A DNA stretch of 63,972 nucleotides, the filler included, from Collodictyon triciliatum (Eukaryota): NCBI GenBank assembly GCA_043381765.1. It is 4 parts of 4 records of this genome, joined end to end, with 100 filler letters (N's around TTAATTAATTAA, not from the genome) between each part and the next. Parts side by side here need not be neighbours in the genome. Positions count along the whole stretch, not along the records: positions 48,163 to 63,972 come from JBHJMP010001632.1; 3 more parts are not named here. One strand, given 5' to 3'. Position 1 is the stretch's first letter; every line of letters starts with the position of its first letter. Shown piece by piece: positions 5,990 to 63,972 of the stretch. Below the pieces are notes generated by a model. That model made no database searches and was not told the origin of the DNA. It saw only the letters and a list, made by a program, of their open reading frames with translations. The position numbers and the translations under genes were made by a program.

Positions 5990-6250
5990 ATCTTTTCCTT
6001 CTCTTCTCTTTTTCTCTTTTTTCTCTTTTTTCTCTTTTTTTCTCTTGTTTTCTCTTGTTTTCTCTTGTTTTCTCTTTTTTCTCTTTTTTCTCTTTTTTCT
6101 CTTTTTTCTCTTTTTTCTCTTTTTTCTCTTTTTTCTCTTTTTTCTCTTTTTTTCTCTTGTTTTCTCTTGTTTTCTCTTGTTTTCTCTTGTTTTCTCTTGT
6201 TTTCTTTTTCTCTTTTTTCTCTTTTTCTCTTTTTTTCTCTCTTTTCTCTC
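5990..6250. repeat. Pyrimidine-rich low-complexity tract (TTTTTCTCT / TTTTCTCTTG units)
   Basis: Degenerate 9-10-nt repeats upstream of MMS19. They explain the spurious F/S/K/R-rich ORFs. Confidence 0.9.
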
Positions 6251-15983: not shown

Positions 15984-16083
15984 NNNNNNNNNNNNNNNNN
16001 NNNNNNNNNNNNNNNNNNNNNNNNNNNTTAATTAATTAANNNNNNNNNNNNNNNNNNNNNNNNNNNNNNNNNNNNNNNNNNNN
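15984..16083. other. Artificial contig linker N44-TTAATTAATTAA-N44; identical linkers at 32020-32119 and 48063-48162
   Basis: The same 12-mer, with stop codons in all six frames, is embedded in Ns at 16028, 32064 and 48107. Confidence 0.95.
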
Positions 16084-18679: not shown

Positions 18680-21600
18680 CTAGTTGTTTGTTGATGCAAG
18701 GATGGCTTGAATGAGACCGGCGCTCTGAGATGCAGTCTCAAAATCTCGCCATAGTTTTCCAATCAGCTGTGTTTTTCTGTTTTTCGACGTGGGATTGATG
18801 TTCCACGAAAAGTAAACACGGCACTTGTACATATTGTAGGCCGCAGGGTCTGTGGCGGCAAGGCTCTTTCTGCGAGTTGAATCTGGGTGGGTAGGTGTAG
18901 AAGCTTTGACGCTTTCCGTATGACTCGAGTCCGCCAAGGTCTTGTGAGAGAAGTAGGTTGGAGTTGCTCCGGGTGAGTTTGGCACAAAGGTCAATGTCTT
19001 CGAGAATCGGAACTGTGGTGGAGGACCAAGCTTGAGATATGCCTTCAGTTGCTTGCGAAGATGCTCCTTTTCTTTCTTTAGCTCTTTGTGTGCCTCCTCG
19101 TCATAGTACTTACTGTGGCGAAAGCCGAACGGAAGCGAGGTTGATAAGGAGAAAGATTGAGAGCGATTAGTTGATGTGTTTTGCAACTGGTAAGGTGACG
19201 CAGAGTTTGTCGATAACTGAGAGAGTGACAGAGCATCTGTCTGCGTAACGTGTTGCGATTGANNNNNNNNNNNNNNNNNNNNNNNNNNNNNNNNNNNNNN
19301 NNNNNNNNNNNNNNNNNNNNNNNNNNNNNNNNNNNNNNNNNNNNNNNNNNNNNNNNNNNNNNNNNNNNNNNNNNNNNNNNNNNNNNNNNNNNNNNNNNNN
19401 NNNNNNNNNNNNNNNNNNNNNNNNNNNNNNNNNNNNNNNNNNNNNNNNNNNNNNNNNNNNNNNNNNNNNNNNNNNNNNNNNNNNNNNNNNNNNNNNNNNN
19501 NNNNNNNNNNNNNNNNNNNNNNNNNNNNNNNNNNNNNNNNNNNNNNNNNNNNNNNNNNNNNNNNNNNNNNNNNNNNNNNNNNNNNNNNNNNNNNNNNNNN
19601 NNNNNNNNNNNNNNNNNNNNNNNNNNNNNNNNNNNNNNNNNNNNNNNNNNNNNNNNNNNNNNNNNNNNNNNNNNNNNNNTTTACGTGCCAGGATGCCCCT
19701 CCACGTCCTCTGAATCTTCAGAATCTACACGGAATTAGTTTTATTTAAAAAATCGTTTTGTTGATAAAATTGCTATTTTTCATGCGATGGTAAGTGATTG
19801 GTTTCTATATCTCTTTCTTTTTAGGAGAATCAGGAAAAGAATGTAATAAATATTTGTTTTTAGGCACATAGTCTTGGTGCACTAAAAGGAAAATACATAG
19901 CAAGATTCAATCGTTGGCTTGACATATTCCTCGCATCAATTTCAAATCCAATCTAATACTTACGCAATCCTTCATGTAAACAAAATCGTCTTTAACCAAG
20001 AGTGCTCTCCACCATCTCTGGATGTAAACTGCTGCTTCTTTTTTCTTCAAGAAAGCTAAGCGCTGTAATGAGTTGGCATTAACATGAAGTATTGGGCAGT
20101 AGTAAAGGCATGACAAGATGAAGAGTGCTTGCAATCCGTTCATCAACAAATTGATTAGATTTTTATGGGAAAGTTTCAGGGCTTATTCGGTCTCTAATCA
20201 TGTTTTGCATCACTCACTTCTGCCTCTGCCCGTTCCATAGCCTCAGCTTCATCCCTGGCGTTTTCATCCGCAAGCTAATAGTTCCCATTAACAAATTGAA
20301 TGTTAGCTTCATGTCATCGCAAGATTCTATTAAATTAAAGCGCGCAGTATATGATTGTATTTCTTTTTGGATCCTTGCTGTTAAAAAAACCTGCAGCTTT
20401 CGGTGCGATTTCATAGCATTAATGGACGAGCTGATAATCTCCATCGCATGTGGGAAAGGCATCACAGCAGCGATTTCTTCTGTTTTTTCAATCAAACTCT
20501 GCATCAAAGTGAAACATTTGACAGAAAAAAAAGGCAATAAAAATTTAGTTAATATATACCCCCATTGGATAATTAGGGGGTTTGAAAGAGTGACAATGTG
20601 CTATTGCTAAAAACATTCAGATAGTCCTTACTTTGCGAAGCTTTGATTTTCCATAGCTGACACGCCGTTGAATAAATATGGTAGACTTTTTCAGAGCTAG
20701 AAAAGCTCTTCTTTGTTTTTTCCTGAATTGTGTTTATGTTCCATAAATTTCATGCTATTTACTACACTATATGTCATATTATTGAAGCAATAAGGGGGAA
20801 AAGATCTATTAATCATGTTCGTCAGCATCTATCCATCAACCTATGATATCTCTTGCAAGATTCGATTAAGTTAAGTGGTTTGCACATTTTGAATAAAATC
20901 ACCACCTTTTGTAATTAGCCTGAATTCGAACGACGGCATTTTCCAGTTGGAAGTATCTCTCATCTCCAAGAAGGATGTGGTAGAATGTCTGGAAGTGCGA
21001 TGGTGTCATTAAATTGCCGAACGGTTGGCCATTTGTTCATGGATTAAGTCATAAATATAAGGTAAATATTCTTGGCTGTTCTATAAAACGATGCGAATAT
21101 CAAAGGCTAACCTTGATTAGAGCTGGGCGGTCAATCATGTGAACCGAACGCATCGCGTTCACGATAGTGTGGAAAAATTCATCAGCAGTTTCAGAAGACG
21201 CCACCAAGTTTTGCGCATCAGGTATGTTTAGGAGTACTAGCAATAACTGTAGGAGGAAGTTGAGATGTAAAGTTATGATGAAACAGGTAAAATGATTCAA
21301 AATTTATCTTAAAAATAGCAGAATGAAGCCTTGGCGACGATGTTTAGGTTGTTATGTCAAAGGCTTCTGTTTAGTATGTCTTACGGCAAAGTTGTCTCGG
21401 ATTTCAGCAAGACGCTGCTCGTACATGTCGATGAGTGCCTCATTTTCATCCGCTGTAAGATGCATATGAAGAAGTTTGATTCACAAATACATAAAAAAAT
21501 GGATGCTGACTGAAAGTGGGACATTTAATATTATGGTAAATTGACGCAGATTTAGAATTTTCTAGAACCGGTTGATTGTATCGTTTAATCGACAGAAAAA

Positions 21601-29335: not shown

Positions 29336-30606
29336 AAGAGAGCAATTGTATTCGCCCTGCGACCGTAAACCTCAGGTCATTCCTCCTCATCTGAGACTGG
29401 ACCAAATCACCGGGGAGTCAGGGTTGCTCAAGACGCTGCATGAAGATGGGTGTGCTTCTTTCGGGGTGTCTTTGTGTTTGTGTATCGGGCGTGTTTGTTT
29501 GCAGATGCCTCGCTTCTCTCTCCGTGGCTTTTGCCTGCGCGTTGTTTCTTTCAACGGGCGGAGAAATTTGCTGTTTTGACAGGTTGGTTTGTACATTCAG
29601 TGATCCGTCTCCAGAAACCCGTGATCATATGTCATTTGCGTTCTGGCACTTTTGTAATGCCGTGTGGCGTTGGTCAAACCCTCTCTGCTACTATTTCCGT
29701 TTTTCTCTTTTTCTTTTTCTTTTTCTTTTTCTTTGTCTTTGTCTTTTTTCGTTTTTCTTTCCTTTTTGTTTTTGTTTTTTCTTTGTCNNNNNNNNNNNNN
29801 NNNNNNNNNNNNNNNNNNNNNNNNNNNNNNNNNNNNNNNNNNNNNNNNNNNNNNNNNNNNNNNNNNNNNNNNNNNNNNNNNNNNNNNNNNNNNNNNNNNN
29901 NNNNNNNNNNNNNNNNNNNNNNNNNNNNNNNNNNNNNNNNNNNNNNNNNNNNNNNNNNNNNNNNNNNNNNNNNNNNNNNNNNNNNNNNNNNNNNNNNNNN
30001 NNNNNNNNNNNNNNNNNNNNNNNNNNNNNNNNNNNNNNNNNNNNNNNNNNNNNNNNNNNNNNNNNNNNNNNNNNNNNNNNNNNNNNNNNNNNNNNNNNNN
30101 NNNNNNNNNNNNNNNNNNNNNNNNNNNNNNNNNNNNNNNNNNNNNNNNNNNNNNNNNNNNNNNNNNNNNNNNNNNNNNNNNNNNNNNNNNNNNNNNNNNN
30201 NNNNNNNNNNNNNNNNNNNNNNNNNNNNNNNNNNNNNNNNNNNNNNNNNNNNNNNNNNNNNNNNNNNNNNNNNNNNNNNNNNNNNNNNNNNNNNNNNNNN
30301 NNNNNNNNNNNNNNNNNNNNNNNNNNNNNNNNNNNNNNNNNNNNNNNNNNNNNNNNNNNNNNNNNNNNNNNNNNNNNNNNNNNNNNNNNNNNNNNNNNNN
30401 NNNNNNNNNNNNNNNNNNNNNNNNNNNNNNNNNNNNNNNNNNNNNNNNNNNNNNNNNNNNNNNNNNNNNNNNNNNNNNNNNNNNNNNNNNNNNNNNNNNN
30501 NNNNNNNNNNNNNNNNNNNNNNNNNNNNNNNNNNNNNNNNNNNNNNNNNNNNNNNNNNNNNNNNNNNNNNNNNNNNNNNNNNNNNNNNNNNNNNNNNNNN
30601 NNNNNN

Positions 30607-31860: not shown

Positions 31861-32349
31861 AATACGTTTTCTATCACACATTATGTCACCACATCTCGAT
31901 GCATTCCAGAGTCATCCATCCCTTTTTTTTTTTTTTTTTTTTAACCCCCCCCCCCCCCCCCCCCCCCTTTTTTTTTATTTTATTTTTTTCTCTTTTTTTC
32001 TTGTTTTCTTTTTTTTTTTNNNNNNNNNNNNNNNNNNNNNNNNNNNNNNNNNNNNNNNNNNNNTTAATTAATTAANNNNNNNNNNNNNNNNNNNNNNNNN
32101 NNNNNNNNNNNNNNNNNNNAAAGAAAAAAGAAAAGAAAAAAGAAAAGAAAAAAGAAAAGAAAAAAGAAAAGAAAAAAGAAAAGAAAAAAGAAAAGAAAAA
32201 AGAAAAGAAAAGAAAAAAAGAAAAGAAAAAAGAAAAGAAAAAAGAAAAGAAAGGGAAAAGAATAATGTTCTTGATCGAATAAGAAGCAGATGCATCATGC
32301 TTCCGCATGTCAGAGCTTTTTGTAAGAAATATGTGCATAGTGTTTCGTG

Positions 32350-48062: not shown

Positions 48063-48162
48063 NNNNNNNNNNNNNNNNNNNNNNNNNNNNNNNNNNNNNN
48101 NNNNNNTTAATTAATTAANNNNNNNNNNNNNNNNNNNNNNNNNNNNNNNNNNNNNNNNNNNN

Positions 48163-49440
48163 TTCAAGGCACAGCTCTGTGAGAGCAGAATCCCATCACC
48201 ACCACCAAACACGCCCGAGCCGCTACTAGCGCGGTGGAAGGTTCTGTATGAAAACTGTGAAATGTGCGAGTCTACCCAACTACTTGATGGTACAGGCCAA
48301 CTTCGCTGGGATAGAGCAAAAGGCTTCTGTATCATCAAGTCGATAGAAGGAAACAGCTCCTTCATCCTGCAACAAGTCGCATTCCAAAAGGATGGAAGCT
48401 TCGCACCGTCGAAAAATGCAACGATATTTCACTCGTCGAATGCAACCCCAACCACAGCCGTCCTGAATAACAAAGGAAAGTGGCGCTCGCGCAGAACAAT
48501 CTCATACGGCATCCAGTCGCCATTCTTCTTCCGCTTCAAGAACGAACGCTCGTCTAACGGTGCGCAGTCTATGCTGTTCACGATGGCTATGACCTACTCC
48601 AAATTCTTTCGATACAAAATATCGCCGCCTACACCTTACAAAAAGTCAAAACATCAACGATGGGGAGAAACACTGGGCATCACCCACACCCCGCTCACCG
48701 CGAGCTGGAGACAAGCACGAAACCCGCTAGTCATCCCAAATCACCGGCTCTCTAATGCTTAATATCACCAATAGGGAGCTATGGATAGGCACACGCGCGG
48801 CAAAAGCTGGCAAAGTCTCCCAAAAATGCACACTTTGCAGCAACGGTGATGAGTCTACTGAGCACAAGTTTGTGCAATGTCCCTTCACTCAAAACCTGCG
48901 CGAAACAGCCGGTGAGATTCTTCAGCTGACACTCAAGACGGCTGCAGCTGTTGGCCTAATCCAGGCGATATTTGGGCCTCTGCAACAGCTGCGCCCAGAT
49001 GCAAAAACATTCTGGGCAGTGACGCGAGGCCATTTGCTATGGACTATGTGGGTAGCACGCATATACTCACACAAGGCAGAATTCAACAGCCAGCCACCCA
49101 TTCCTGATAATAGACTGAATGACATCATACAAATCTCTTTCCTCAATAGCTTTCTTCGCCACCTGCGCGTTCTCTATTACTCCGACCCCGTGAGAAGAGA
49201 CATGTGGAAAGAGGCTGAGAAGGACATTAAACCTCGCCCTTGTATCCCTCATGCAAGCACAAGACCCAGGCTACAGGCCAACACGCAGGATGCAATTCCT
49301 GATAATTGAATACTTCTTCGCCACCCGGCCACCAAGTAGCATCCTTGCAAACGATGACTAGCGAACCAAAGCCAACATCTTCACCATCCTGCACAAAATT
49401 TAAAGGAATAATAGAAAAGATAAAGCGAAGAGAGGGAATG
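48163..49440 (+). mobile_element. 3' part of a non-LTR retrotransposon (L1/Tx1-like ORF2 C-terminus with zf-RVT zinc finger, plus 3' UTR); frameshifted
   Basis: ORF 48755-49309 contains KCTLCSNGDESTEHKFVQCPFT (CxxC...ExxxH...C) and a LLWTMWVAR helix typical of L1-clade ORF2 C-termini. It is joined to the upstream ORF (48262-48762) by a frameshift near 48755. The 5' part is cut by the contig linker. Confidence 0.85.
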
Positions 49441-49871
49441 AAAAGTATGTCTTGCTATGGTCAAAAGACAAAATGAGACGCCGAACAAAGGGAGTGCTGA
49501 GCAGCGAAGATGAGGGTTTACGACAGACAAAGACGGTAAAGGATAAACTCCAACAAAGAGATGAGTGACCCATATCCAAGCGATCTTCTAGCGGACAGCA
49601 AAAGAACAAGATGCTACTGAATAAATAGTTACTGGACTATTTGCTCTAGCTGTCGAATCAAGGTTGGGATGACTACTTAAAATCATGTGCCGAAAAAAAT
49701 CCCTCTAAATTTATTATCAGTAGTATATTATTTAACCTATTTATCTTTTCTCGTAATCGACGAGAAACACGAGTCAACTTATTATTATACTATAGATCTT
49801 GTAATTAATGATATAGAATGTCAATTATTTTCTTTTATTCTGAGACTCATCCAGAGATATATTGGAGCATT

Positions 49872-51368
49872 CTACTTTATAATCTCTATCATTTTATCAA
49901 CATAATTCATGACTTTGGTTATGTTGTAAAAACTCCTATCTCCTTCAATTCCCATATACGGAAATTGTAGCTTTCTGGCCATCACGGCGTAACAATCAAC
50001 TATTCCAGGTGATTTAGTAGGGTCCATCGGAGAAGTGTCATGTATCTCGATGATACCTGTAGATGTCGAAAAGAGCATATTTACGAACCCTGCTCCGTGT
50101 TGTCCAATAATTATCTTAGCATTTTTGAATAACCTGATTGTGTCCTCCATCGATTCGTGTACGTACTTGATGACATCCCATTTATTGCCATATTTTTCAA
50201 TAATAGCAGATACCATTTCATCTGTATTATTTACAGGCCTCAATTGACGTCGATCAAGAACAATAATAAGATTTTTATCCATATTTGAATTGACTGAGGA
50301 GAAACTGAAGATATTGGCGCGGTGAGGTAACGAGTATTGCGTGAAATTTAATTCCTTCACACCAAAATGATGCCTCATCAGCATCATCTGAGGTAGAATG
50401 GGCTTTATGCATATCGGTAATGTTGGCAGAATTATTTCTTTGAACGATAATAAACACTCATTTTCACGAGTAAATTCTATTATGCGACTCTCAGATATCC
50501 CAAATTTATTTATTGCATACTTAGAAAACACTGTTCGTCTGTCGACCAAAACTTTAACTGATTCATCTTTCCTTATGTTTTCTGGCAATGTGAACCAGTG
50601 TAAGAGAGAATCTACCCATATATGATAGTAATTTACTTGTCCCCACTTGCTCATAGGAAGAATCACTACTCGTTCCTTGCTCATATCTGATTTGCTACTG
50701 GTAGTACACTTGTTTGAGGATACACTAACGTTAGCTTGACTATATCCCATCAGAGACAATTTATCTCGACATGTGCCAGCGAATACACTTTTCGAATCAG
50801 TAACGAAAACTTCATGATACTGGTGCAGCAAAAATTGCGGGTTGTCAGTGAGTGATACCCAGTGTTCCCCTTCATGCATGGATGAAGGAGAGAATTGCTC
50901 AAGTTTTACAAGATGCCCTGATGAATCGCGTTGAAGCAAGCCAGCTGTGGGCCATTTTTTACCTCTCATGTAAGCTTTATATAGTCCTGGGTAGAAAAAT
51001 CCTGCCCTTGGCCTTTCTTCCCAATGTTTACTCAATGTATCCTCCACGAAAAAATAATTACTTTGAAACCAATACATTTCATCATATTCTGCGAGTTTTT
51101 GTAACACGTTGTTGTGGTAATTTGGGCTATTAGCAACGTAATAATCTACGTATTCCTAAATAGTAATTTATTAAGCACAAAAGCTTATGTTGGATTAAGC
51201 TCAGGACTAATCACCAGTGATAGGGACACTATACCGATGGCAAGTGAATAAACAAACCTTAATGCTGTAGTTGTTCACATTACTTCGAAATATGATCTGT
51301 ATGAGTTCACTCGCTTCACATTTTATGTTTAAGAAGAAATAAAAGATAAATATTATCTTGATCACCAT
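49872..51368 (-). CDS. Glycosyltransferase family 61 (DUF563-type) protein with N-terminal signal/anchor; two exons (51368-51258, 51155-49872)
   Basis: NYYHIWVDSLL and IRLFKNAKIIIGQHGAGFVNMLF...IIEI are GT61 motifs. Exon 1 (MVIKIIFIFYFFLNIKC...) splices in phase 0 via GT-AG into the 411-aa ORF. Confidence 0.85.
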
Positions 51369-52019
51369 CAGAAACCTATCACATTTAAAATCATTCAATA
51401 TATTTTGCAACTTTCATAATTTGAATAGGTTATCTCTGACTTGTTTCATAAAAAATACATGGAACAGATGAGTCATGTTTGAATGCAAAAAAGGGACAGA
51501 AATCGATGGGGACCAATGGTGTTTTATGACATTAGGTACGTATTTGAGTAACAGTCCGCCACTTTGACGTCTGATTGAAGATGTTTGTGGCACTGAAAAT
51601 TCGTTTCGAAAAAAAGAAGGAACTTCAGTCTCGGGTGATTTTGAAAAAAGTATTAAAAAAATTCACCAAGATAACTGGGCGCTAAAGAACTTATGGAAAA
51701 TCCGATCTATATGAAGTAATGTAAGCAAGATATCTTCAAAATACTGAGGATGATTTTAGACATATGGACTATAGTAGACCATGTAGGAGGCAATGATGTA
51801 CTAATTGGCCCCATTTCCGCCACGTTAGGTTACAACGAGGTGATATACAGTCTTGTTCATGGTCCAACTTACATTGGCAAGGAGAACCTCCATTAGATCG
51901 CTTACGACTAACATACCGCGATCAGAAATTGCAGCCGGGATCGACCTATGCTAAAAAGGAGACTACTTTATCTGCCCCCAGGGCAAGATATGGCCTATCC
52001 TCTCTTTCACAATCCATTT

Positions 52020-52515
52020 TTCTTCCTTTCAGCTTTTTTGCAGGACCGAGGGGGGTGTTGGCTTTGGTTCGCTAGCCATCGTTTGTATGGGCGCTACTTG
52101 TCGGCGGAGAAGTAGTCGGTACTCAGGATTGCATCCCGCGGTTTGGCTTGTGGCCTGGGTGTTACAAAGGGGTGTCTGGGGGGCATGGGGGGATATTCCA
52201 AGAAGGGCAGACATGGAATAGAGGGGGGACAATTCTGTGGGGGTGTGTTTTTGTGGGGTCGAAGCTCGGCGTAGATATGGCATCTCATTCCTCTCTCACG
52301 GAAGCACTCTTCTGATGACGTCATTTTCTTCGAAAGTTGTGGGGTGTGCTCCGTTGTCCGGCGAAGCACAACCCCGGCTGCCCTGGATTGGGTATAACTG
52401 AGGGCACAGGAGGAGGGCTCAGGGAATGCGTGGTACAGGGCCGGAATCACACACACCGCGCACCCTGTGGGGTTCGAACCACGTTCGCGCAGGTCAGACG
52501 CTGTCCCATGCCAGC
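52020..52515 (-). mobile_element. Putative SINE: tRNA-like head, structured GC-rich body and 3' tail derived from the local LINE
   Basis: Minus-strand head ...CGTGGTTCGAACCCCACAGGGTGCG (B-box/T-arm-like, ~52459-52483). The tail (52160 down to ~52022) aligns with LINE 49264-49408, including CAAACGATG(G/A)CTAGCGAACCAAAGCCAACA with a single mismatch. Confidence 0.7.
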
Positions 52516-52654
52516 TGAAGAATTTACACAACTTATATTCAGTGTTTTGCCGACACGATTAAATATTACATTTATTGACCAGTACAACAATCAGGTCAAC
52601 TTCCCGCAGACAGCTAGTGTAGAAATTACACTCAAACTCGTTCCCGTAGAATAA
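52512..52654 (+). pseudogene. C-terminal remnant of a minor capsid (penton-like) protein, truncated at the SINE
   Basis: AEEFTQLIFSVLPTRLNITFIDQYNNQVNFPQTASVEITLKLVPVE* resembles the terminal strands (I.F.DQ.G..VDF....FTL) of Polinton/PLV/virophage pentons. The upstream part of ORF 52337-52654 is SINE sequence. Confidence 0.55.
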
Positions 52655-52675
52655 TTTTGTATATATTTCTCGGCA

Positions 52676-52707
52676 TTGTAAACATTTTTTAAAAATAATG
52701 TTTACAA
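52676..52707. promoter_or_regulatory. Palindromic intergenic motif, copy 1, just upstream of the fibre ATG
   Basis: TTGTAAACATT-TTTTAAAAAT-AATGTTTACAA followed by ATATATG (ATG at 52712). Confidence 0.6.
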
Positions 52708-52711
52708 ATAT

Positions 52712-54913
52712 ATGACTTCATATGAAATCGGATCATACAGTTCTAGGTACCCCTATGACTATTCATTTGTGACAGACGGGACAAACTCAGAATATACAGA
52801 CACAACAGAATCAAATTTTATTTTGCCAACTATAACGGGAGCAGACGCGGATAAATTTCTACAAGTTAACGCGCAGGCAACTGGATACGAGTACACAGCA
52901 GTCGATGCTGAGCTTCCTCCACAGGCTGGGCAAGCTGGGAAATATCTTGAAACTAATTGCACATCAGTTTTTTGGGATACAGTGAATCAAGTATCTGGTG
53001 TAACTGGTGGTGTCGCCAACCAGTATCTAACAAACAATGGTAGCACAGCAAGTTGGGGGTCTGTGAATCAAGTACCTACTATAATACCTGGAGCTACTGG
53101 AAAAAGTGGGTATGTATTATCAAACGATGGGTCAAGTGCAATCTGGACAAACGGGCCTATAGGTTTGGGTACAACTGGGCCTGCTATTCCAATTATTTGG
53201 TTTGGAAGCAATAACAACGGCTTTGCAGAGGCGTGGACGGCGAGGGGCGGGGCCACGGGTGTCTCAGCAATTACAAATGGCGCAGTATGTTGTACATTTC
53301 AATCGAGTGCCATCCGACTGCCCGGGGGCAATCCAATACGATCTAATGGAAATGCGGCGTCTAGATTTCAGTTTACCTCTGATGTACCTAATATGCAAAA
53401 TTCTGTTGCTGCCGGGACTACTGGAACCGACCGTAGTGTTAATTTGAGTTCAGCCAATTGGGCATCAACTTCACTAGACTTGGTATGCAGCAATACAAAT
53501 GATACACCAGGCGCATTAAATGCTAGTTCGATGGCAGTTGAAATAAAACAAAATCAAATTGTTCTTAGTGGAGCTGGGACAACGGCATCAACTACGTTAC
53601 CAGCTCGTCAAACAAGAATGACTATTAGTAACGTAGAAGTAGCTACATCTTTACCTTTGGCTGTAAGCAACTATATAACTGCGACAAGTACTATTATAGC
53701 CACGACTGACTTTGTGATGAATCAACCTGGAACAGAAGCCAATCAAGCTTACATGTTTCGAAATTTTGACACTTCTGACGCCAACCGAAATAAAAATAAT
53801 AGACAAGGAATATATAGTCCTGATATCGGAGCCATAGCAATTTCAACAAACTCTGTGAGCAATATATCAGGAAGTATCGCTGGTAGACCCAATGCGGTAG
53901 AGCGTTTTAGGGTCGATGATAATTATGTGACTGTGACAAATTCATTAAATATAAGTAGAACTACATGCGTTGGTGCAACTGCCCCGCATTTATCTTTTGG
54001 TGACATTACTGCGCCAGTCAGTGGAGTATGGGGTACAAATGACAGTTTATTTTTTAGTTCAAGTGGGGCACAACGTGCCAATATATCAAACACAGGTATG
54101 AGTATAACAGGCGACTTGACTGTAATTGGAACAATATCAGGGAGTATATCAGCCCCTCAAGTAGTCAAAAGAACGCACGTGATTGGAGCAACTAGCAGTA
54201 CAGCATACGTATATGATTCAGGCAATACAGGGCTAGCTACAACACTTATATCTAATTCTATTTCATCACAAAAGAATATTACACTTGGCAATATGGGTGC
54301 TGCATATGAAGGCTTTGAATTTATGTTAACAGGTGACTTAGACAGCTTTGGTGTTGCAGTGACTCTTGCGTGTACCGGTTCATTTGTAAAAGTCAGGTCA
54401 GGTGCTATTGGTATAGATGGCAGCACAGCTGCTAACCAGGTATTTACATTTTCAAGACCAATGAATGAGTTTAGAATTACAGGTGCGTTTGTTTGGAATG
54501 GTGGAACAAATCCTTACTGGATTGTTGTTGATAAGGGTGTATATAAACAGAGGGCAACAAATGATCTATTTGCAGGTGGCACATACAGTGTAAGCAGAAA
54601 CACACCGGAGGATTTGATGTTGACACGCGCGAGTGCTACAAGAATTGATTTTTTGAATCTTGTTACCAATGGAGGTAGTCAAGAAGACTATGATGGATTT
54701 AATTTTTGGCTGCCACCCTCACAAGACGTAACAAGCTCGTTGAGTTTTAAAAAAAGCACATCAGTTGGATTAATTATAAATGACGGTTCTGCAATAACTA
54801 CAATCAATGCAAATAGCACATTACAAATCCATGCAGCTAGTGCTGTTGGAAGTTGTTATATGTGTGTTTTTCGTAATAACTCTGGCTTTAGATGGTATCT
54901 GTATGCAATGTAA
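52712..54913 (+). CDS. 733-aa viral fibre/spike-like protein (G/T/S/N-rich, beta-strand repeats), intronless and intact
   Basis: N-terminal repeats LPPQAGQAGKYLETNCTSVFW / VTGGVANQYLTNNGSTASW / IPGATGKSGYVLSNDGSSAIW resemble viral tail-fibre repeats. Later segments QGIYSPDIGAIAISTN...VERFRVD and SGAQRANISNTGMSITGDLTVIGTI are also fibre-like. Confidence 0.75.
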   Translation: MTSYEIGSYSSRYPYDYSFVTDGTNSEYTDTTESNFILPTITGADADKFLQVNAQATGYEYTAVDAELPPQAGQAGKYLETNCTSVFWDTVNQVSGVTGGVANQYLTNNGSTASWGSVNQVPTIIPGATGKSGYVLSNDGSSAIWTNGPIGLGTTGPAIPIIWFGSNNNGFAEAWTARGGATGVSAITNGAVCCTFQSSAIRLPGGNPIRSNGNAASRFQFTSDVPNMQNSVAAGTTGTDRSVNLSSANWASTSLDLVCSNTNDTPGALNASSMAVEIKQNQIVLSGAGTTASTTLPARQTRMTISNVEVATSLPLAVSNYITATSTIIATTDFVMNQPGTEANQAYMFRNFDTSDANRNKNNRQGIYSPDIGAIAISTNSVSNISGSIAGRPNAVERFRVDDNYVTVTNSLNISRTTCVGATAPHLSFGDITAPVSGVWGTNDSLFFSSSGAQRANISNTGMSITGDLTVIGTISGSISAPQVVKRTHVIGATSSTAYVYDSGNTGLATTLISNSISSQKNITLGNMGAAYEGFEFMLTGDLDSFGVAVTLACTGSFVKVRSGAIGIDGSTAANQVFTFSRPMNEFRITGAFVWNGGTNPYWIVVDKGVYKQRATNDLFAGGTYSVSRNTPEDLMLTRASATRIDFLNLVTNGGSQEDYDGFNFWLPPSQDVTSSLSFKKSTSVGLIINDGSAITTINANSTLQIHAASAVGSCYMCVFRNNSGFRWYLYAM

Positions 54914-54938
54914 TAAATTTATTAATTACTTTCAATTG

Positions 54939-54971
54939 TTGTAAACGTTTTTTTAAAAAAAATGTTTACAA
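54939..54971. promoter_or_regulatory. Palindromic intergenic motif, copy 2, just upstream of the small TM gene
   Basis: TTGTAAACGTTTTTTT-AAAAAAAATGTTTACAA followed by GGATATATG (ATG at 54978); near-identical to copy 1. Confidence 0.6.
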
Positions 54972-54977
54972 GGATAT

Positions 54978-55140
54978 ATGGACCCGGTGTTGATTTTTTT
55001 GTTGATATAACTTGTGTTTGATTGCTGAGAGTGCGATGAAGTATTATTTAAAAAAAATTCGCAAGTCTCAGCGCTGTAATAGCGTAATGCAAACGCGTGA
55101 ACCAAGTCCTGATATTGAGCTTGAAAAAATAAATATTTAA
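54978..55140 (+). pseudogene. Small membrane-anchored viral protein, frameshifted
   Basis: MDPVLIFLLI then, after a frame change, YNLCLIAESAMKYYLKKIRKSQRCNSVMQTREPSPDIELEKINI*: a hydrophobic N-terminus followed by a basic patch. It sits directly behind the conserved intergenic motif. Confidence 0.45.
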
Positions 55141-55146
55141 GAATGC

Positions 55147-55443
55147 ATGGACTGGCACAAAGAGTTAAAAATTAATAAAGTAACATACAGAGTCAAAAAA
55201 GCAAACGACAAAAAACACAAATATGTCGTGTATATACTTGACGGAGGCATGGAACGGTCCCCGGTACGATTCGGGGCGCTTGGCATAGAGCATTACAAAG
55301 TTAAGTTTTAACAGTACTCGCAGTCAGACCATAAGGATAAAAAGCGCCTGGACAATTTCCTCTCTCGATTTGGTTCTCAGTATGAAAACATTAAGAACGA
55401 CCCCAGCAGCGCGTTGTTTTGGAATTGGAATTACTTGTGGTAA
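55147..55443 (+). pseudogene. Tlr6F-like protein (conserved in Polinton-like viruses, virophages and Tetrahymena Tlr elements) with an internal stop
   Basis: MDWHKELKINKVTYRVKKANDKKHKYVVYILDGGMERSPVRFGALGIEHYKVKF*QYSQSDHKDKKRLDNFLSRFGSQYENIKNDPSSALFWNWNYLW*. It shows the KY...V.FGA.G...HKD..R...F..R...SA.FW...LW pattern, with an in-frame TAA at 55309-55311. Confidence 0.8.
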
Positions 55444-55531
55444 TTTTTTTGGAAAATGATTCTGTCGAAAAAATACAAGTGCGTTTGAATTCCAGATTTT
55501 TTAATTTGCCAGAGAAGGAATGGAATCCCCC

Positions 55532-56019
55532 AGCAATTGCCAATTTTTGAAGTAAATCACAATAAAATTGAGGACTTGAAGTTATGTATTTATTTAACCT
55601 TGGTGGAGGCAGCTGTGCACATGTATAAAATGTATAAGTATGATTCCAACAATTTTACTAATCTACAAGAATGTAATTTATGAGTCTGTGAGGTGTCATA
55701 TATTACATGTCCGGATGAGTTTCAATATTGGTATTCATCTAGAACCAATGAAATTATTGATAGACTCAAATCAGTATCATATGGTAACATAGACGAATAT
55801 ATTTGGAGGAATTGGCAAGGTAGTCATGGAGAAATGTATAGATTTTTAAAAAATAATGAACATCCGGTAATTGGAACATATGAAAATAATTTGATTGATA
55901 AAGACATTATTAAACGTATTCTTAATAGTCTTGATTCTGTTTTATATGAGTTAGAAGTTGAAGACATTACCGTTGCAAGATTTAAACACATAATGTGGGA
56001 AGATTTATTAAAAGACTAA
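55532..56019 (+). pseudogene. Unknown viral-type ORF interrupted by a stop (the 108-aa ORF 55693-56019 is its distal part)
   Basis: Frame QQLPIFEVNHNKIEDLKLCIYLTLVEAAVHMYK...ECNL*VCEVSYITCPDEF... runs through a single TGA (~55681) into the listed ORF. It is intronless and AT-rich, with no family recognised. Confidence 0.45.
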
Positions 56020-56603
56020 CTCTTACCCTGGCGCGCCAAACATTACAATAAACTATTTAATTCACTTGTATAATTTACCCAGCCCCAGACCTTGCCGCAG
56101 CTTTTTGCTCAAAACCCAGCCCCCCGCCAGATAACTCTCCACAAAATTTGCCCTCGGAGGATTTCGGAAATTTCCGGAAAAATCCAGAGCCTCGGTAGAA
56201 GCCTGCTGGGGTAGCCGGGTGGGTAAGTCAGTAGCCTGGCCCCGCACTAAAGATATAAGAAAATTAGGAGGGAGAATTTCTCAATTTCGACGCCCTTTAA
56301 GCAAGGATTTCCGGAAATTTCGATTTATGAAAAAAAGAGGGTGGTCCCCACCACCCTCTTTTTTTTAATTTTCTGGAAAATTCCGGAAAAATATTAATAA
56401 TCCTCTTACTCCTTTCAATCTTATATTTCATATTCTATATTGGTAATTATTTTGAAAGGATGTGAGGGTTTGTGGATGTTCATTTCCATCTAGCTGTGAC
56501 GATGAAACTTTTGGAGGGTGGGAATTACGGAAATCGGAAATTTTGTTTTTAAACTAATGTAGGGGGGTCCAAAAAGTACCCCTCACACCACCACACCCTC
56601 TCT
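56020..56603. repeat. Putative right terminal (TIR-like) region of the viral element
   Basis: Non-coding and GC-richer than the adjacent ORFs. It has repeated GGAAA(T/A)TTCCGGAAA-like motifs (~56166, 56307, 56375), a perfect 16-bp stem AAAAAAAGAGGGTGGT-CCCC-ACCACCCTCTTTTTTT (56330-56365), and ends in CTCTCT (56598-56603). Confidence 0.5.
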
Positions 56604-59600
56604 TTTTCCGCAAACCTACAGACGAACACAAATGGCGAACCGGGACAAATAAATGAGAGTGGGGGAGCTCGTTCAGTTATTGTGAACCCTTGCAACTGAA
56701 GTTCTACCCAATACAAACGGCGACACCCAAAAGAATAAGTTACGGAGATGTTTCATATATAAAAGTGTGTGGGGAAGCCTGGAGGGTTGCCAATATCCTC
56801 GCCAGGGCTTGAGAAAAGCCTCGCCAACCCCCTGGATATACTTAAAGTATGTTCAAAATCGCAGGTTCAGAAGAATAGTGAAGGCGAATATATATATTTA
56901 TATTAATATATGTATTCGGTTTCATCGTTTTCGTTTTGATAAATGGTTCAATCTAACAACTTCGTGGACTAGCTGAAAAATCGCATAATTTTATTCAATC
57001 TATCATATTAAGCATTAATTATTCATCTTGAATTAGTAAATGTTCGAACTAAAGTCATGGGCAAAACTCAGATACAGTTGAAAAGGAGAGGGACAAAAGA
57101 CAATATCCGTGGGAAAGGGAACTGTTTCGATCTACTACTTGGAGGAGGTGGGAGCGGTGGTGGATCGGCGGCTCCTAGTTTTCCCGATGGTCTGAAGTAA
57201 AGGTCTAAGAACGTACGGTGGGGGTGTTGGGTTGTGTTGTGTGTGGAAGTATGTCTTTGTCTAGTCATTCATGACCAAAAAAATAAATAAAATAATAATA
57301 TTCGTTGTAAATTTTTGTAATCGAGAGTAATATATCCTTTTTTGCGGTAAGGAGGCTTAATCTTATTAGAAAATATTGCCTATTTAACATATAAAATATA
57401 GCATGCATTAAGTCGACAAGTTTATAATTAAAAATATTTCCGTTGTAAAACTATTAATAATAATGTAGAACAAAAATCTATAAAATCGAGAATTATCATC
57501 AGAGTCTGGCCGTGCTAGTTAATTATTATTCAGTTGATAGATTTAATATAGTATGAAAAATGAAATCAATATTTAATATTTATAATCGTCTCAGATATAT
57601 ATTTTCTAATGAAGTCAAATAAAGATGAATGGACTGCCTAATGCATCTGCATCGCTATGTCGTTTATTTTTCAATAATCGTATTACGTATCGCCTTTTGA
57701 ATACTAAATATACAGAAAAATATTTAAATTACTTATCTACTAGAGAAGCTTAGTTATCTGCATACTCTTGGTATCCATATTTTAAATTCCGTTTTAATTA
57801 AATCAATAGATACACAATTGCATCAAATGTGAATTTTAAAAAACCAACTAACCAACACAAAAAACCATTATATTATCCAAATCGAAAAACACATACCATA
57901 TCCCCGCTAAAAACCAGTTTGCCGCTGAATGATACACCACCCCTCCCCTTGACCGACCTGCAATCTTTTGTCCACAGCTTCACACCCATACTCCTCACCT
58001 TACTAGACCTTGTTCGTTTCTCCAAGTGAAATGAATTGTAGGTTTATCGCTCAATAAATAAATCTATATATTAGTTAATCGTTGTTATATCATCTAAATT
58101 AGTTCAATTTTCTCCCTTGCTTATATAGATGTCGATTTATCAAATCCAACAAACCCACCCTTCCAATTCCAAGTCAACCAGAGGTAATGAAAAGGTATTT
58201 GTTATATGTATTATTACGTACCCCCGACTAATCGAGGATTTGGTGGACGGTTCACGCCCTTTTTATTTTGTTTTACGATTACCATCATTCAAATATATTA
58301 AGAAAATCATTTTTATGCATACAAATTATATTTTCGTGTATTTATTGGTTTATATAATGATTAATTATTTTATCAATACATACAGTATGGCTTCTATGAT
58401 TGTTCATATTAGTGATTCTATCTTATCAATAAATACTTGATATTGTTCGGTTTATTCCTATCTGGTCAAAATATGGCCGATTACCAGTATTAATGCATAT
58501 ACAATTTTATTGATAATCTACATTATTCATTTTCTATCAAATATTCAAATACAAGGATTCAATTCGTCTGCATTGATAGAAGTGTAAACTAATTGAATAG
58601 CTAAACTTTCAGTTTTATAATATCTCTTGAAATGATTGTGATTGCAAATTGAATAATATCAATACCTTTTTTATTCTTGTATCATAATGAGTTTAGCTTC
58701 TTTTAAACACTGATTTTATCTTGGGTTCCAAAGGAATTTAAAAATCACATGGTTTAGAGCTCAAAGAAATATAAGATTTGCGTAAAACATATCGCTATTA
58801 ATAGTCAAAAGAATAAAGTCAAATTTTTGTCGATATAACTAAGCAGTGCTTTGGATTTGATTTAATGAATAATATTAACATGGAAATTGACATACGATTG
58901 GATTTTTAAGATAGTTGGTTGATTAGAACCCACGATTAAGAGCTATCTTATAGAGAACGAAATAATCACGATGAAACAGATGAATACATGCAAATCTATA
59001 GTGAAAATTATTGACAATCACTGAACCTCTTAGAGATGATACCCAGCTCTCACAAAACATCATATTTTGGTACTTCAATCAGTTGTTAATGTAACTTTAC
59101 CGAATATTAGGATGTCACTCATCGCTTGGCCATTTCTATACACATATGGTTGTACTTCACGAGTAAGCATAGTTCTAAAACAATTAATAATCCAGCTAAC
59201 TGAATGAAGATTTCATATACTCAATTTTAGACTTTTAAATCCAGAACAAATTTTATCGGAAGCTATTTTCAAGAGCGATATTTTTTTCTCATATAAATAT
59301 TTTTTGATATTGTCAAGAAAACAAGGTTTTTTAATAATTGATTCAATATAAATTATCTAATAATATGGCTGTTTTATCCTCTGGTTGTTTGATTAATTAC
59401 TGTGTAATTATTTAACACTAAGAGGATTCGAATAAATGGTTCTTATCCCAATATTTTTTCATTTTGATAATGAATAACAATATACGAATGCAACAATAAT
59501 GAACATTTTTTTATGATTTGGAACTGACATTTATTATTTTAGGAATGACTAAAGTTCTAGCCGGCACGATGATTTTAAGCACATAGTTCCATTCTGTTTT

Positions 59601-60358
59601 ATTTTTTTTAGTCATTAATCAACTCATATGAATCACAAACTCATGATTCTCTTATCTATCAAAATTCATTTGTATTTGCAATCATACGTTTTAGCTTATC
59701 GGTGAATATCTCAAGATGCTGAATAATAGATTATTTACCTGGTTTATTTGAAATTGAAAGATGAAAGAGGATTAAAATATTGAATCAAGATATATGAGTG
59801 TGCGGAAAGACAAGTGGTTTACGGATAAGAGATTGATTTGTTTGAAGGAAAGTTTAAAATAAAAATAAGACAGTTAATTTAAAAAAATTATAAAATCAAA
59901 TAATGAAAATAAATTTGTACACTTAAAAAATTCATTCATTTTTTCCTATGCAATATGTTTGTGTTGATTTATTTTTATAAATAATGCATTTCTTTCATCG
60001 TATCAACTTTATATCATATGAAAAATCAATAATATTTGATAAATAGATACAAAATTAAGCTTCAATTTAAGAATTACTTTATTTAATACTGAATATTCTT
60101 GAAATCATACTTGCTGAATATTCCTATGTTTGGTGAATAAAATATCAGCAGAACTGATGATATTCAACTTATAATGAGAAATTGGTTGCAATAGGATACA
60201 AATGCACTCACCAGACAAAAAAAGAACCAATTCCCGACGCGATAATTTCTTCGAATCGAGAAGGTCATCTCCCAATAATCCTGCAACGTGTGTTTCATAA
60301 TTCAATCTAATAAATACATTTGATTAATTAGTCTTAATTTAAATCTATAACCAGAAAT

Positions 60359-63300
60359 ATGATGCTTTTGACTGCCTTTGTTGCCATCTTTTTCTTTGTT
60401 TCATCGGCATCCTCAATTCATCCACGTCAAAGGTATATTTTGATTTATAAATATTTATAAAATACACTTTCGACTCAAATAAGGAAAACAGATGCCAGTA
60501 TTCAAGAGATGAGTTGCTTTCCATGAAAGTCGAAGATGCGTTCCAAATTCTGTTGAGCCACTACGATGAGACATGTCCTTTGTTAAAAGAGAGTGAAGAT
60601 AACTTTTCAGGGATGATGAATGGCTGGAAAGACGGAGAATACTCGCTAGAAAATGGACATGGTGCTGAATGGAATTATGGAAGAAAATCAACAACTAGTA
60701 AGGTCGATTTCTACAAAGAAATTCATTCGCCAATACGAAGTAGAAGCAGGGAACGGGGATTAGAGAACGAAGAGAACCGAAATGTGGCCGATGGAAATCC
60801 TGGGACCCAATACGAACTGCTCGTTCAACTTTACGCTTTACTTGGAGGTGATGGTTGGTATTCGAGCTATGGATGGAATGATTTGTACACTCCAATTTGT
60901 GGGTGGTATGGGATATACTGCTACCAGTGCCCTTATGAAATGCACAGGGTTATTCTTCAATACATAAATCATTCATTTTGTTCCGTCTGAATCGAATAAA
61001 GAACAAATTCATCTTGATCTAACATGTATATGCCATTAGGATAACACATGCCTCATCTATGCAATAAGCCTGTCAGGAAATAATCTTAACGGTGACATTG
61101 AAGCTGCCTCTGCAATTTTCGAGAAGTTCCAATTGTTGGATTCCTTGGACATGAGCTACAACTCCATTTACGGAAATCTTCCAGACTTTAATCTCCCAAG
61201 CATTACGTATTTGAATCTCTATGTGAATCAAATTACAGGAACAATTCCAGACTTTCAAGGAATGCCGAATATTGAATTTCTTGATATTGATGGGAATGGA
61301 TTGGAAGGAACAATACCGGATTTTTCTGGAATACAGTCGCTGAAAGCATTATACATTGGTGGAAGTGAAAAAATTACAGGTACAAAGTAATTTCCTTTAA
61401 GATTTATTCTGAATTCTAATGATTTTTCCATTTCAGGAACTCTTCCTGACTTCTCAGCGTTGCCAAATGTTCACTATCTTTGGATTTATATCTGCAAAGT
61501 TCATGGTTTGATTTTCATCCAATTAAATATGATGGCATACAAGTTGTCGTATTATCACCTATATAATATAGAGGTGATAATACCACACAAGTACTAATTT
61601 TTTTATATTAATTACAGGCATGGTTCCAAACTTCAGTGGAATACCAAATGTTTTAGAGATATATCTTAACAGCAATCAATTGGATGGTAAGTTTTCATTA
61701 TTATTTTCATGTATAATATATAAAAGAATCTAACTTTACATTACAGGAACCGTTCCAAACTTTAATGGAATTCCGAATGTTGAAATAATTTCTCTTGACA
61801 ACAACCATATGACTGGTTAGTTTTATTACTATTTCATATATCATTGAAGCAAAAAAAATTAACTTTACATTGCAGGAACGGTCCCAAACTTCAGTAGAAT
61901 TTCGAATGTTTTAGAGATATATCTTTTCAGCAATCAATTGACTGGCAAGCTTTAATTATAATTTCATGTGTTATTGATAAAAACTAACTTTACATTACAG
62001 GAACGGTCCCAAACTTCAGTAGAATACCGAATATTTTAGAGATATATATTCACAGCAATCAATTGACTGGCAAGCTTTAATTATAATTTCATGTGTTATT
62101 GATAAAAACTAACTTTATATTACAGGAACGATTCCAAACTTCAGTGGAATATCGAAGGTCGAAATAATATCTCTTTCCGACAACCAATTGATTGGTAATT
62201 TTTATTATTTTCGTGTGTTAATGATAAAAAAAAACTAACTTTATAATACAGGAACGATTTCAAACTTCAGTGGAATTCCAAATGTTTTAGAGATATATCT
62301 TTCCAGCAACCAGTTGATTGGTAAGTTTTATTATTTTTCATGTTTTATTGATAAAAAAACTAACTTTATATTACAGGAACGATTCCAAACTTCAGTGGAA
62401 TTCCAAATGTTTTAGAGATATATCTTTCCAGCAACCAGTTGATTGGTAGGTTTTATTATTTTTCATGTGTTATTGATAAAAAACTAACTTTATACAACAG
62501 GAACAGTTCCAAACTTCAGTGGAATTCCAAATGTTTTAGTAATTTATCTTTCCAGCAACCCATTGAATGGTATGTTTTAATTATTCTTTCATGTATTATT
62601 GATACGCTAACTTCATATTGCAGGCACGGTCCCAAACTTCAGTGGAATTCCAAATGTTTTAAGAATTCACCTTGATAGAAACAGACTGGATGGTGATTTC
62701 TATTCATTTTTCTTTTTTTGATTTTCATATTTACATTAATTCAATGAGTAATTTTAGGCAAAATCCCAAACTTTTCAAATATGCGTAAACTGGAGATCAT
62801 TTCTGTCTCTGATAATCAGTTGGAGAGAGAAGTTCCAAATTTTAGAGATTGCGAAAACATCAAGGGAATAGTATTGTTCCGAAATAAGTTGTCGGGCACA
62901 TTGCCAATGTTTAATCTTAATAGTCTTACTAGGCTGGATGTGAGCGAAAACCAAATCAGTGGCTCTATTCCAGAAAATTGGATATTGCCTTCAATTAAAT
63001 ACATCGACTTGTCTTGGAACAAAATGAACGGCACAGTCCCAACCTATTTTCAGGAATTACCAGAGCTGCAGTCACTCGTTTTATCACACAATAAATTCTC
63101 TGGAAGCATGCCTGATTCATTCTGGAATCTGCCGAATCTAGTCACCATTGATTTGAGAAACAACTCGTTTTCAGGAGACGTTGGTATTTTTATTGTTCCA
63201 GATACAGACAAAGTCGATTATTTTTATGAAAATCTTTTGCTTGATGATAACCAATTGAATGGAGAACTGAATTGGAGACTTTTTCACTATGTTAATAACA

Positions 63301-63972
63301 TAAAAACATTAAGTCTTATGAGCAACAACATCACCAGGCTTGATGACCTTACAAATCTTCTTACATGGACTTCACTAGACTTGTCTGGAAATCCTATTGT
63401 TGGAAGCATACCTGAATCTTACGATTCATTCACCAAGCTTGAGTATTTAGGATTCAAAAATACGAGCATGAGTCATGGTTCTTCATATTTTCTTCCATCC
63501 TTTATAAATATCACTGACTCCTACAATTTCGAAAGGACGACAGATAGATATTCATGCCCATCAGTTGCCCCTCTCTCAGGGTTGGTCGAGATGGAAGTGG
63601 ACATTGACCCAAAGTACCACGAATATGGGCTGTGCAAATGCTTACCTGGTTACTTTGGATTTGGAAACCATTGTGTGAAGTGCCCAAGAGAATGTGAGTG
63701 TAGTGACGGTGTTTCCTTGGAAAAATGCTATTTCACTCCAGACGTTCTTAAGATAGTCCAGATAGTTCCGTGCATGAATCCAGACGTGTGCAAATTTTAC
63801 ATTCCAGAGTCTATGTCAGAGAGAATGCTCATAAGCAATAAAACTTATGATTTCCCGTGTGAAAAAGGATACAAAGGAAGAAGTTGCTCTTTTTGTGAGG
63901 ATGGATACTTATTTGACAGCGGTGAATGCAGGGAATGCTCATCCGATTACTCTGCTCTCAAGGTTATTGTTT
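60359..63972 (+). CDS. Secreted/receptor-like LRR protein (signal peptide, LRRNT cap, many plant-type LRRs, Cys-rich region, probable TM beginning at the window edge); 3'-partial
   Basis: MMLLTAFVAIFFFVSSASS signal peptide and cap LLVQLYALLGGDGW...WNDLYTPICGWYGIYC. LRRs include LDMSYNSIYGNLPDF and LNLYVNQITGTIPDF. Ten 69-nt single-LRR exons precede a long exon from 62758 that ends CEKGYKGRSCSFCEDGYYLFDSGECRECSSDYSALKVIV. Confidence 0.9.
61618..62692 (+). repeat. Tandem array of ~125-130 bp exon+intron units, each encoding one 23-aa LRR
   Basis: Exons 61618-61686, 61747-61815, 61876-61944, 62001-62069, 62126-62194, 62252-62320, 62377-62445, 62501-62569 and 62624-62692, all 69 nt and phase 1-1. 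The introns are homologous to each other, ending ...CTAACTTTA(C/T)ATTACAG. Confidence 0.92.

Follow-up and report, generated by a model that had tools for sequence, protein, structure and literature searches.

What a row of near-identical exons, each encoding one leucine-rich repeat (LRR), is doing in a single gene of the protist Collodictyon triciliatum is the question raised by the locus described here. The gene lies at the end of a stretch of 63,972 nucleotides from assembly GCA_043381765.1 (hereafter the window, meaning the whole stretch that was analysed), which consists of four parts joined by filler, the last of them (positions 48,163 to 63,972) from record JBHJMP010001632.1. An earlier note on this DNA had described the ten exons at 61437-62692 as tandemly duplicated cassettes of an LRR receptor and had proposed that they form a rapidly diversifying, immune-like recognition module. 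The array itself has been confirmed as real and well above chance. Another origin is likely, in which a unit of exon and intron was amplified or homogenised by unequal crossing-over in the recent past and is spliced constitutively, with a framework under purifying selection and a binding face that evolves in an approximately neutral manner. There is no sign so far of immune-like diversification, and the present evidence does not show such a system.

The mini-exons were searched for between 60501 and 62800 with the pattern AG|69 nt|G[TC] and an open inner frame, which returned 12 candidates. Two of them encode no LRR and were dropped, one inside the long exon 2 (60766-60834) and the other overlapping exon 10 and its intron (62679-62747). 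The ten 69-nt LRR exons span 61437-62692, with starts at 61437, 61618, 61747, 61876, 62001, 62126, 62252, 62377, 62501 and 62624, and are numbered here as mini-exons (or units) 1 (61437) to 10 (62624). Translation gave one 23-residue LRR per exon (10/10), with the framework GT[VI]PNFSGIPNV, and reproduced exactly both the framework and the nine beta-strand strings quoted previously. All ten mini-exons are phase 1-1, two bases completing a codon at the start and one base opening a codon at the end, and all ten end in G and begin with GA or GC, so that every junction codon is GGA or GGC and encodes Gly. Because the length is 69 nt, the phase is the same throughout and Gly is rebuilt at each junction, every join between mini-exons stays in frame, and units could indeed be gained, lost or skipped without a frameshift, as had been suggested.

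The duplicated unit comprises both the exon and its intron, as the earlier note had recognized. Tandem Repeats Finder reported an array at 61611-62661 with a period of 125, 8.4 copies, 81% matches and a score of 1132. In the identity matrices, exons 2-10 show 62-99% identity to one another and the introns that follow exons 2-9, eight in number and 54-60 nt long, show 68-98%, while the alignment of array units has a mean column identity of 80% and CTAAC is present in 7/8 array introns. Two adjacent introns, 61945-62000 and 62070-62125, have GC donors (GCAAGC) and thus GC-AG boundaries, and are 98% identical to each other. Since this donor is common to both, the intron was copied together with the exon, and a T>C donor change was duplicated with the unit.

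The ten exons are not one uniform tandem set, and this part of the earlier description holds for exons 2-10 only. Mini-exon 1 (61437-61505) encodes an irregular LRR and is only 48-55% identical to the other mini-exons, and the 112-nt intron that follows it is unrelated to the array introns (42-46% identity); it is an older LRR exon outside the young array. At the other end, the homology of introns from 61618 onward extends to the eight introns after exons 2-9 but not clearly to the 65-nt intron after 62692, which is barely alignable with them (53-62% identity). Compared with the other units, exon 10 (62624-62692) shows 3-10 differences in its first 38 bases but 12-16 in the 31 bases from 39 to 69, a two-part contrast for which Fisher's test gave p = 0.0001-0.07 over eight comparisons. 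This exon is a chimera, its first 38 bases belonging to the young array and its last 31 bases, together with the following intron, being old; the right edge of the array therefore lies inside exon 10, where Tandem Repeats Finder ends it as well.

Two side observations concern these units. The 112-nt intron after mini-exon 1 contains a near-perfect palindrome (61545-61587), whose 21-nt arms are 90% complementary and separated by 1 nt. The window has a single copy of it, which may form a hairpin or represent what is left of a small inverted-repeat element. In addition, an N-F-S sequon (within the PNFS of the framework) is found in 8 of the 9 young units (61618-62692) and at the start of the next exon (62758-62790), while most relatives from Diphylleia rotans, described below, have PDFS at this place, from which it follows that the amplification added a row of potential N-glycosylation sites at a spacing of 23 residues.

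The gene is transcribed and spliced as modelled. Metatranscriptomes and metagenomes from freshwater contain near-identical sequence, though only as a small fraction (no more than 0.18 of the words sampled), and four runs from four studies were compared by means of 12 contigs of 99-351 nt, in which cover is thin and rare forms are dropped. All 12 contigs are at least 99% alike. Five RNA joints, four in the array and one at its left flank, were seen directly, at 61505|61618 (in X1 as well as X2, which belong to different studies), 61686|61747, 62569|62624 and 62692|62758, the contigs matching at 100%. Two further contigs of 99 nt bear on the interior of the array: one 'goes back 69' at 62444>62376, consistent with a splice from exon 7 to exon 8, which differ at one base, and the other, from X2, holds the exon 61876-61944 followed by 24-25 bases common to the starts of the exons at 61876 and 62001, consistent with the order 3>4>5, exons 4 and 5 being joined via the GC donor of the intron 61945-62000. 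The exon skipping that had been anticipated did not appear: all listed joints link neighbouring exons, and no skipping joint occurs among the 12 short contigs, with their thin cover and loss of rare forms. No variant letters are listed in the four runs, again at thin cover. One X2 contig (211 nt) retains the 57-nt intron 61380-61436 while the next intron is spliced, and this retention puts a TAA in frame after three codons.

The gene model has 14 exons and 925 codons with no stop, is bounded by AG/GT or AG/GC at every boundary, and runs off the window at 63972. Its main features, together with those of the array, are as follows.

60359..60432, plus strand: exon 1, carrying the ATG and an N-terminus that is hydrophobic and resembles a signal peptide (L, F, I, V, A or M at 12 of the positions 3-17), with a GT donor.
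60492..60948, plus strand: exon 2, the N-terminal region up to a cap motif with Cys that precedes the LRRs.
61040..61379, plus strand: exon 3, five LRRs in one exon, ending in phase 1, with matches to Pfam LRR_4, LRR_1 and LRR_8.
61437..61505, plus strand: mini-exon 1, an older 69-nt phase 1-1 LRR exon, with the splice 61505|61618 in runs X1 and X2.
61611..62661, plus strand: the young array, in which a 125-bp unit composed of a 69-nt LRR exon and a 54-60-nt intron is repeated in tandem in 8.4 copies.
61945..62000, plus strand: intron with a GC donor (GCAAGC), like its neighbour 62070-62125.
62624..62692, plus strand: mini-exon 10, the chimera marking the right array edge, with the splices 62569|62624 and 62692|62758 in one X1 contig.
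62758..63972, plus strand: the final exon of the model, cut off where the window ends, with about nine LRRs and the start of a Cys-rich module, matching Pfam LRR families.

No RNA joint is listed for the intron after exon 1, and one contig starts at 60490 with seven unplaced letters. Exon 2 is matched at 60493-60921 by residues 54-156 of the Diphylleia homologue P0002 in tblastn and is covered by an RNA contig at 60490-60706; no Pfam family was found in it at E<=0.01, and LRRNT_2 is hence undetected, while a Cys-x-W-x-G-[IV]-x-C-like motif is visible by eye. In exon 3, four repeats match the motif and one further unit, missed by the pattern, was inferred from a 47-residue spacing. Parts of the last exon are covered by RNA and DNA contigs. 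The model contains 24 LRRs in total (23 core-motif matches and the one missed by the pattern), and one-repeat exons are confined to the central solenoid. The gene uses standard stop codons, and the surrounding DNA has a G+C content of 37%.

Only LRR families (LRR_8, LRR_1 and LRR_4) were detected by Pfam in the exons of the gene. The repeat consensus, LxxLxLxxNxLxGxIPxF, is of the plant type, and the best matches among solved structures are the ectodomains of the plant LRR receptors GSO1 (6s6q, E=2e-71) and FLS2 (4mn8, E=1e-69). From the Pfam families, the gene model and the Protein Data Bank (PDB) matches, the product looks like a secreted or membrane-anchored surface LRR protein, with the array as the central part of its solenoid. 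It may serve in the recognition of ligands, such as those of prey, mates or microbes.

The nearest relatives of this protein form a large family in the transcriptome of Diphylleia rotans. With the last exon as query, full-length relatives of 1200-1800 residues were found at 35-40% identity, the other matches being generic plant and bacterial LRR proteins. When the last LRRs and the Cys-rich module were searched against 1.84 billion representatives, 541 matches were obtained at E<=0.001, 72 at <=1e-10 and 21 at <=1e-30, the best being 43-47% identical. Of 20 clusters looked up, 18 are transcripts of Diphylleia rotans (EukProt EP00002), a collodictyonid of the CRuMs clade, and the other two are proteins on 1-2 kb contigs. 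Members of this Diphylleia family (e.g., P0002, P0003 and P0125) are 34-47% identical to the window gene over the last LRRs and the Cys-rich module and share its 23-residue unit with GT[IV]P[DN]F, and 24 Cys, Pro and Gly columns are invariant in a five-sequence alignment of the window gene and four Diphylleia homologues. The full-length relatives have a signal peptide, a cap, 23-residue LRRs, the Cys-rich module and a long hydrophobic C-terminus that looks like a multi-pass membrane domain; language-model look-alikes of this C-terminus include TRP C-terminal and Ephrin_rec_like clusters (scores of 0.92-0.94), which is a lead only. In four full-length relatives, Pfam detected LRR families, plus FG-GAP_2, LRRNT_2 and DUF7630 in some (LRRNT_2 in P0013), but neither ROC-COR nor kinase domains. 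At least 18 distinct 90%-identity clusters of this LRR/Cys-rich/multi-pass architecture occur in the single D. rotans transcriptome (P0002-P0321), and P0013 adds FG-GAP repeats and three LRR modules. This is a large, receptor-like and apparently undescribed family in a CRuMs protist; no paper was found that names both 'Diphylleia rotans' and 'leucine-rich repeat'.

In P0002, the best homologue, the LRR core motifs are spaced as in the window gene both at the start (27, 22, 23, 47) and at the end (22, 23, 24, 24, 29/30, 25, 46). The window gene has 24 LRRs and P0002 has 26, the central ones of P0002 being diverged, with a maximum pair identity of 0.52. Repeat pairs that are at least 70% identical number 14 of 231 in the window gene, compared with a single one, in P0150, in 36 relatives examined together. 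A block of near-identical repeats thus seems peculiar to the window gene and no trait of the family, a comparison weakened by the possibility that repeats of such similarity are merged by Trinity. Members of the family, counting partial proteins, have between 8 and 38 LRRs. The Diphylleia relatives are known from the transcriptome alone. Considering the same end spacing, the similar totals and the diverged centre of P0002, we infer that young units replaced older, diverged ones; turnover would accordingly describe the history of the array better than net growth from a single unit, which is less likely.

The array is recent, as the differences among its units indicate. Between units 7 and 8, only 1 of 69 exon sites and 4 of 55 intron sites are different, and between units 4 and 5, 6 of 69 exon sites and 1 of 56 intron sites. 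Divergence is greatest in the copies at the edges, and the order of most units is fixed by differences found in that unit alone. The unit tree groups units 4 and 5 (support 91), 3 and 6 (82) and 7 and 8 (57), with unit 10 on a long branch. A 376-bp period scored higher than the 125-bp period in the same Tandem Repeats Finder run (1303), and a three-unit higher-order block, with which the pairing of units 3 and 6 would agree, was considered; it was rejected because the pattern is too irregular.

We propose the following course of events. One LRR exon and its short intron were recently amplified, or spread over older neighbouring units, most likely by unequal crossing-over or gene conversion between misaligned LRR exons, leaving an intragenic array of 8.4 units of 125 bp. 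With an exon of 69 nt, phase 1-1 and Gly rebuilt at the junction, each such event would preserve both the frame and the fold. After duplication, the framework remained under purifying selection and the solvent-exposed beta-strand positions drifted at about the neutral rate, and the mini-exons are probably spliced constitutively in genomic order. The data show the anatomy and splicing of the array, its youth, the unequal constraint and the chimeric edge on the right; unequal crossing-over, the replacement of older units, the location at the surface and a role in recognition are deduced from them.

Whether the binding face has been diversified by selection was addressed by comparing concave codons, defined as x2, x3, x5, x7 and x8 of LxxLxLxxN (five codons per unit), with the framework. 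For units 2-10, the Nei-Gojobori proportion of non-synonymous differences (pN) is 0.39 at concave codons vs 0.11 in the framework, while the synonymous proportion (pS) is similar (0.35 vs 0.36), giving dN/dS values of 1.15 and 0.25, respectively; the framework value for units 2-9 is 0.28. Parsimony on the maximum-likelihood (ML) tree, a single tree being doubtful for units that may recombine, yielded non-synonymous to synonymous (N/S) changes of 20/4 at concave codons vs 21/18 in the framework (Fisher p=0.028), and non-synonymous changes per codon are also higher at concave positions (one-sided Mann-Whitney p=0.003). The higher dN/dS that had been expected at concave codons was thus observed, but an omega (dN/dS) above 1 is not shown: the concave N/S ratio is 5.0, the same as expected from the sites available for either kind of change (4.8), which means that omega is about 1 and that the contrast reflects a difference in constraint. 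Such a value fits relaxed constraint as well as it fits diversifying selection. Moreover, four phylogenetically independent sister pairs show no significant contrast (differences at 9/60 concave sites, 31/222 intron sites and 25/216 of the remaining exon sites). Rapid diversification, as originally proposed, is therefore borne out insofar as amino-acid change is concentrated on the concave face, but neither omega nor the sister pairs show an excess.

Several results weigh against recent amplification with a neutrally evolving face. In units 2-9, dN/dS at concave codons rises to 2.6, a value from five codons, and the minimum number of changes per column is 0.87 at concave sites, compared with 0.48 at other exon sites and 0.46 in introns, which leaves room for some positive selection at concave sites. 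However, the introns are a poor neutral yardstick, since they are short and carry conserved signals (the CTAAC mentioned above). In units 4 and 5, 5 of 27 sites differ in bases 27-53 of the exon vs 2 of 98 elsewhere (p=0.005, with the window of bases chosen post hoc and only one concave position involved); this cluster could be a diversification patch instead of a conversion tract. Recombination among units was not significant in a permutation test modelled on the pairwise homoplasy index (PHI; p=0.09-0.44), and crossing-over or conversion is thus not directly shown. RNA cover is partial, with no contig for the junctions 5>6, 6>7 and 8>9, and the copy number of the array rests on one assembly. 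The DNA run (63300-63650 only) and run X7 (63220-63558 only) do not bear on the array. Finally, the membrane domain would fall past the window end at 63972 and is known from the homologues alone.

The alternative that survives best, although we consider it unlikely, is the one originally put forward, according to which the locus would be a rapidly diversifying, immune-like recognition module. Its binding face would be varied through the gain, loss, exchange or alternative splicing of cassettes, a process that has been put forward for the ROCO genes of brown algae. Such a module would make good use of frame-neutral cassettes with an invariant Gly junction, and it would account for the concentration of non-synonymous change on the concave face, where the number of changes per column is about 1.9 times that in the introns. 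Splicing is not uniform, as can be seen from the two weak GC donors and from the contig in which an intron is retained, and the number of LRRs varies from 8 to 38 among family members. There is also a precedent in Ectocarpus, for which two papers report 72-nt one-LRR exons, positive selection and several splice variants (PMC3341825, PMC11378527). However, concave omega is about 1 and not above it, the independent sister pairs show no excess, and the RNA joints all lie between neighbouring exons, without variant letters in the four runs. Isoforms in the Diphylleia clusters argue in the same direction: among 38 Trinity isoform pairs, none differ by 23 residues or a multiple thereof (0/38), large differences in length are all terminal, and internal gaps measure 3-34 residues; the one gap of 22 residues falls in a tail that is messy and 90% identical. 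Elsewhere in the 64-kb window, neither strand yielded a paralogue or an orphan cassette, tblastn with P0002 matching only 60493-63947 on the plus strand. In addition, the young units make the surface more uniform, two of them being identical on the beta-strand and three sharing LEIYLSSN or LVIYLSSN.

A stronger form of the same idea, a working generator of diversity driven by frequent unequal recombination or by regulated skipping aided by the two weak GC donors, appears improbable. If true, it would imply that a CRuMs protist has a receptor for recognizing prey or microbes that varies between cells or between strains, and cassette-based variable LRR receptors would have originated independently of those of brown algae, ciliates and jawless vertebrates.

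It is comparably improbable that the number or order of the 125-bp units is an assembly artefact, produced by short-read expansion, collapse or shuffling. Units that are 70-99% identical and only 125 bp long invite such errors, there are N runs in the window, and no read set spans the array, the one DNA run lying outside it. Nevertheless, independent RNA contigs match at 100% across the junctions 1>2, 2>3, 9>10 and 10>11, further contigs are consistent with 3>4>5 and 7>8, the private differences in most units fix their order, and the reading frame is intact through ten exons. A decaying neutral minisatellite in a gene that is losing its function, with mini-exons no longer under selection, is the least probable reading and is already largely refuted: raw divergence is similar in the exon framework and the introns (0.161 vs 0.189 per site, and 0.48 vs 0.46 minimum changes per column), but the framework dN/dS of 0.25-0.28, the absence of stops in 925 codons, the intact splice sites and the transcription and splicing seen in two metatranscriptomes all oppose it.

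Recent amplification or homogenisation of a constitutively spliced unit can be set beside several known systems. Plant LRR receptor kinases and receptor-like proteins (GSO1, FLS2, PEPR1 and BRI1) provide the best structure matches and share with the window gene the repeat consensus and an extracellular solenoid after a signal peptide. Their repeats have 24 residues, compared with 23 in the window gene. They further differ in that no kinase was found in any relative, LRRNT_2 is undetected in the window gene, and the C-termini of the relatives look multi-pass and not single-pass.

A close analogy in exon design is offered by the brown-algal ROCO (LRR-ROC-COR) genes. Their type I one-LRR exons are 72 nt long, constant in length and symmetric in intron phase, and the genes are reported to show positive selection and splice variants and to have inverted relics of exons within their introns (Zambounis et al. 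2012, PMC3341825; Teng et al. 2024, PMC11378527). They resemble the window gene in having one LRR per constant-length exon, a phase that allows in-frame shuffling, the plant-like GxIPxxL and a variable concave face. However, the exons are 72 nt there and 69 nt here, the phase is 2 according to Teng et al. (PMC11378527) and 1 here, and the proteins are cytoplasmic GTPases, whereas the window gene has a signal peptide and a Cys-rich module, with no ROC-COR detected by Pfam in it or in its relatives. The positive selection, splice variants and relic exons described for brown algae were not found in the window gene, as seen through short RNA contigs and a single array.

The comparison with Tetrahymena made in the earlier note is a loose one. 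In the LRR gene arrays of that ciliate (Xiong et al. 2019, PMC6564038), each exon measures exactly 90 bp and follows an intron in phase 2; equal-length LRR exons in tandem, a single intron phase (an interlocked unit) and a young, lineage-specific expansion are common to both cases, but thousands of genes with 90 bp and phase 2 stand there against one gene with 69 nt and phase 1 seen within the window. The vertebrate glycoprotein-hormone (gonadotrophin) receptor also has single-LRR exons in one intron phase, a feature from which its growth has been attributed to the duplication of exons (as cited in PMC11378527), yet its duplications are ancient, its introns long, unrelated and in phase 2, while the array introns here are still 68-98% identical.

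Searches for further examples gave little. No LRR paper was found among those mentioning a 69-bp or 69-nt exon, a 28-base pattern from the unit had 0 loci in viral contigs and 0 in metagenome contigs, and a profile search of metagenome contigs with the unit alignment returned 100 pattern stretches, none of which was confirmed by tblastn. The principle of one-LRR exons is therefore known, and what is new here is the exon size and phase (69 nt, phase 1), the protein family and the youth of the array, as well as probably the lineage. The array provides an unusually young and clean snapshot of how an LRR solenoid grows and turns over, with introns that can still be aligned, a breakpoint within an exon and a copied GC donor, and it extends the one-LRR-per-exon design to a new exon size, phase and protein family and probably to a poorly sampled lineage (CRuMs). 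If the array proved to be polymorphic or alternatively spliced, the case would be much more interesting.

The remainder of the window was surveyed as well, since the earlier note had mentioned a viral insertion in the same contig. No viral hallmark was detected by Pfam on the 96 open reading frames (ORFs) of at least 90 amino acids upstream of 60300, among which MMS19_C, DDHD, kinesin, Sel1, zf-RVT and GT61 were the only families found. A 743-codon intronless open frame at 52682-54910 (plus strand) has no Pfam match and may be what had been called viral; its language-model look-alikes are small, virus-labelled clusters, and the likeness is weak (score of 0.92, 161-163 shared features). A G+C-rich island at 6001-8100 (0.47 vs 0.34-0.38 around it) contains long overlapping open frames on both strands without a Pfam match. 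Paired 44-base N runs mark the filler between joined parts at 15984-16083, 32020-32119 and 48063-48162, and longer N runs are found at 19263-19679 and 29788-30606. Close to the run at 48063-48162, the ORF at 48731-49306 (plus strand) matches zf-RVT and is probably a fragment of a retroelement.

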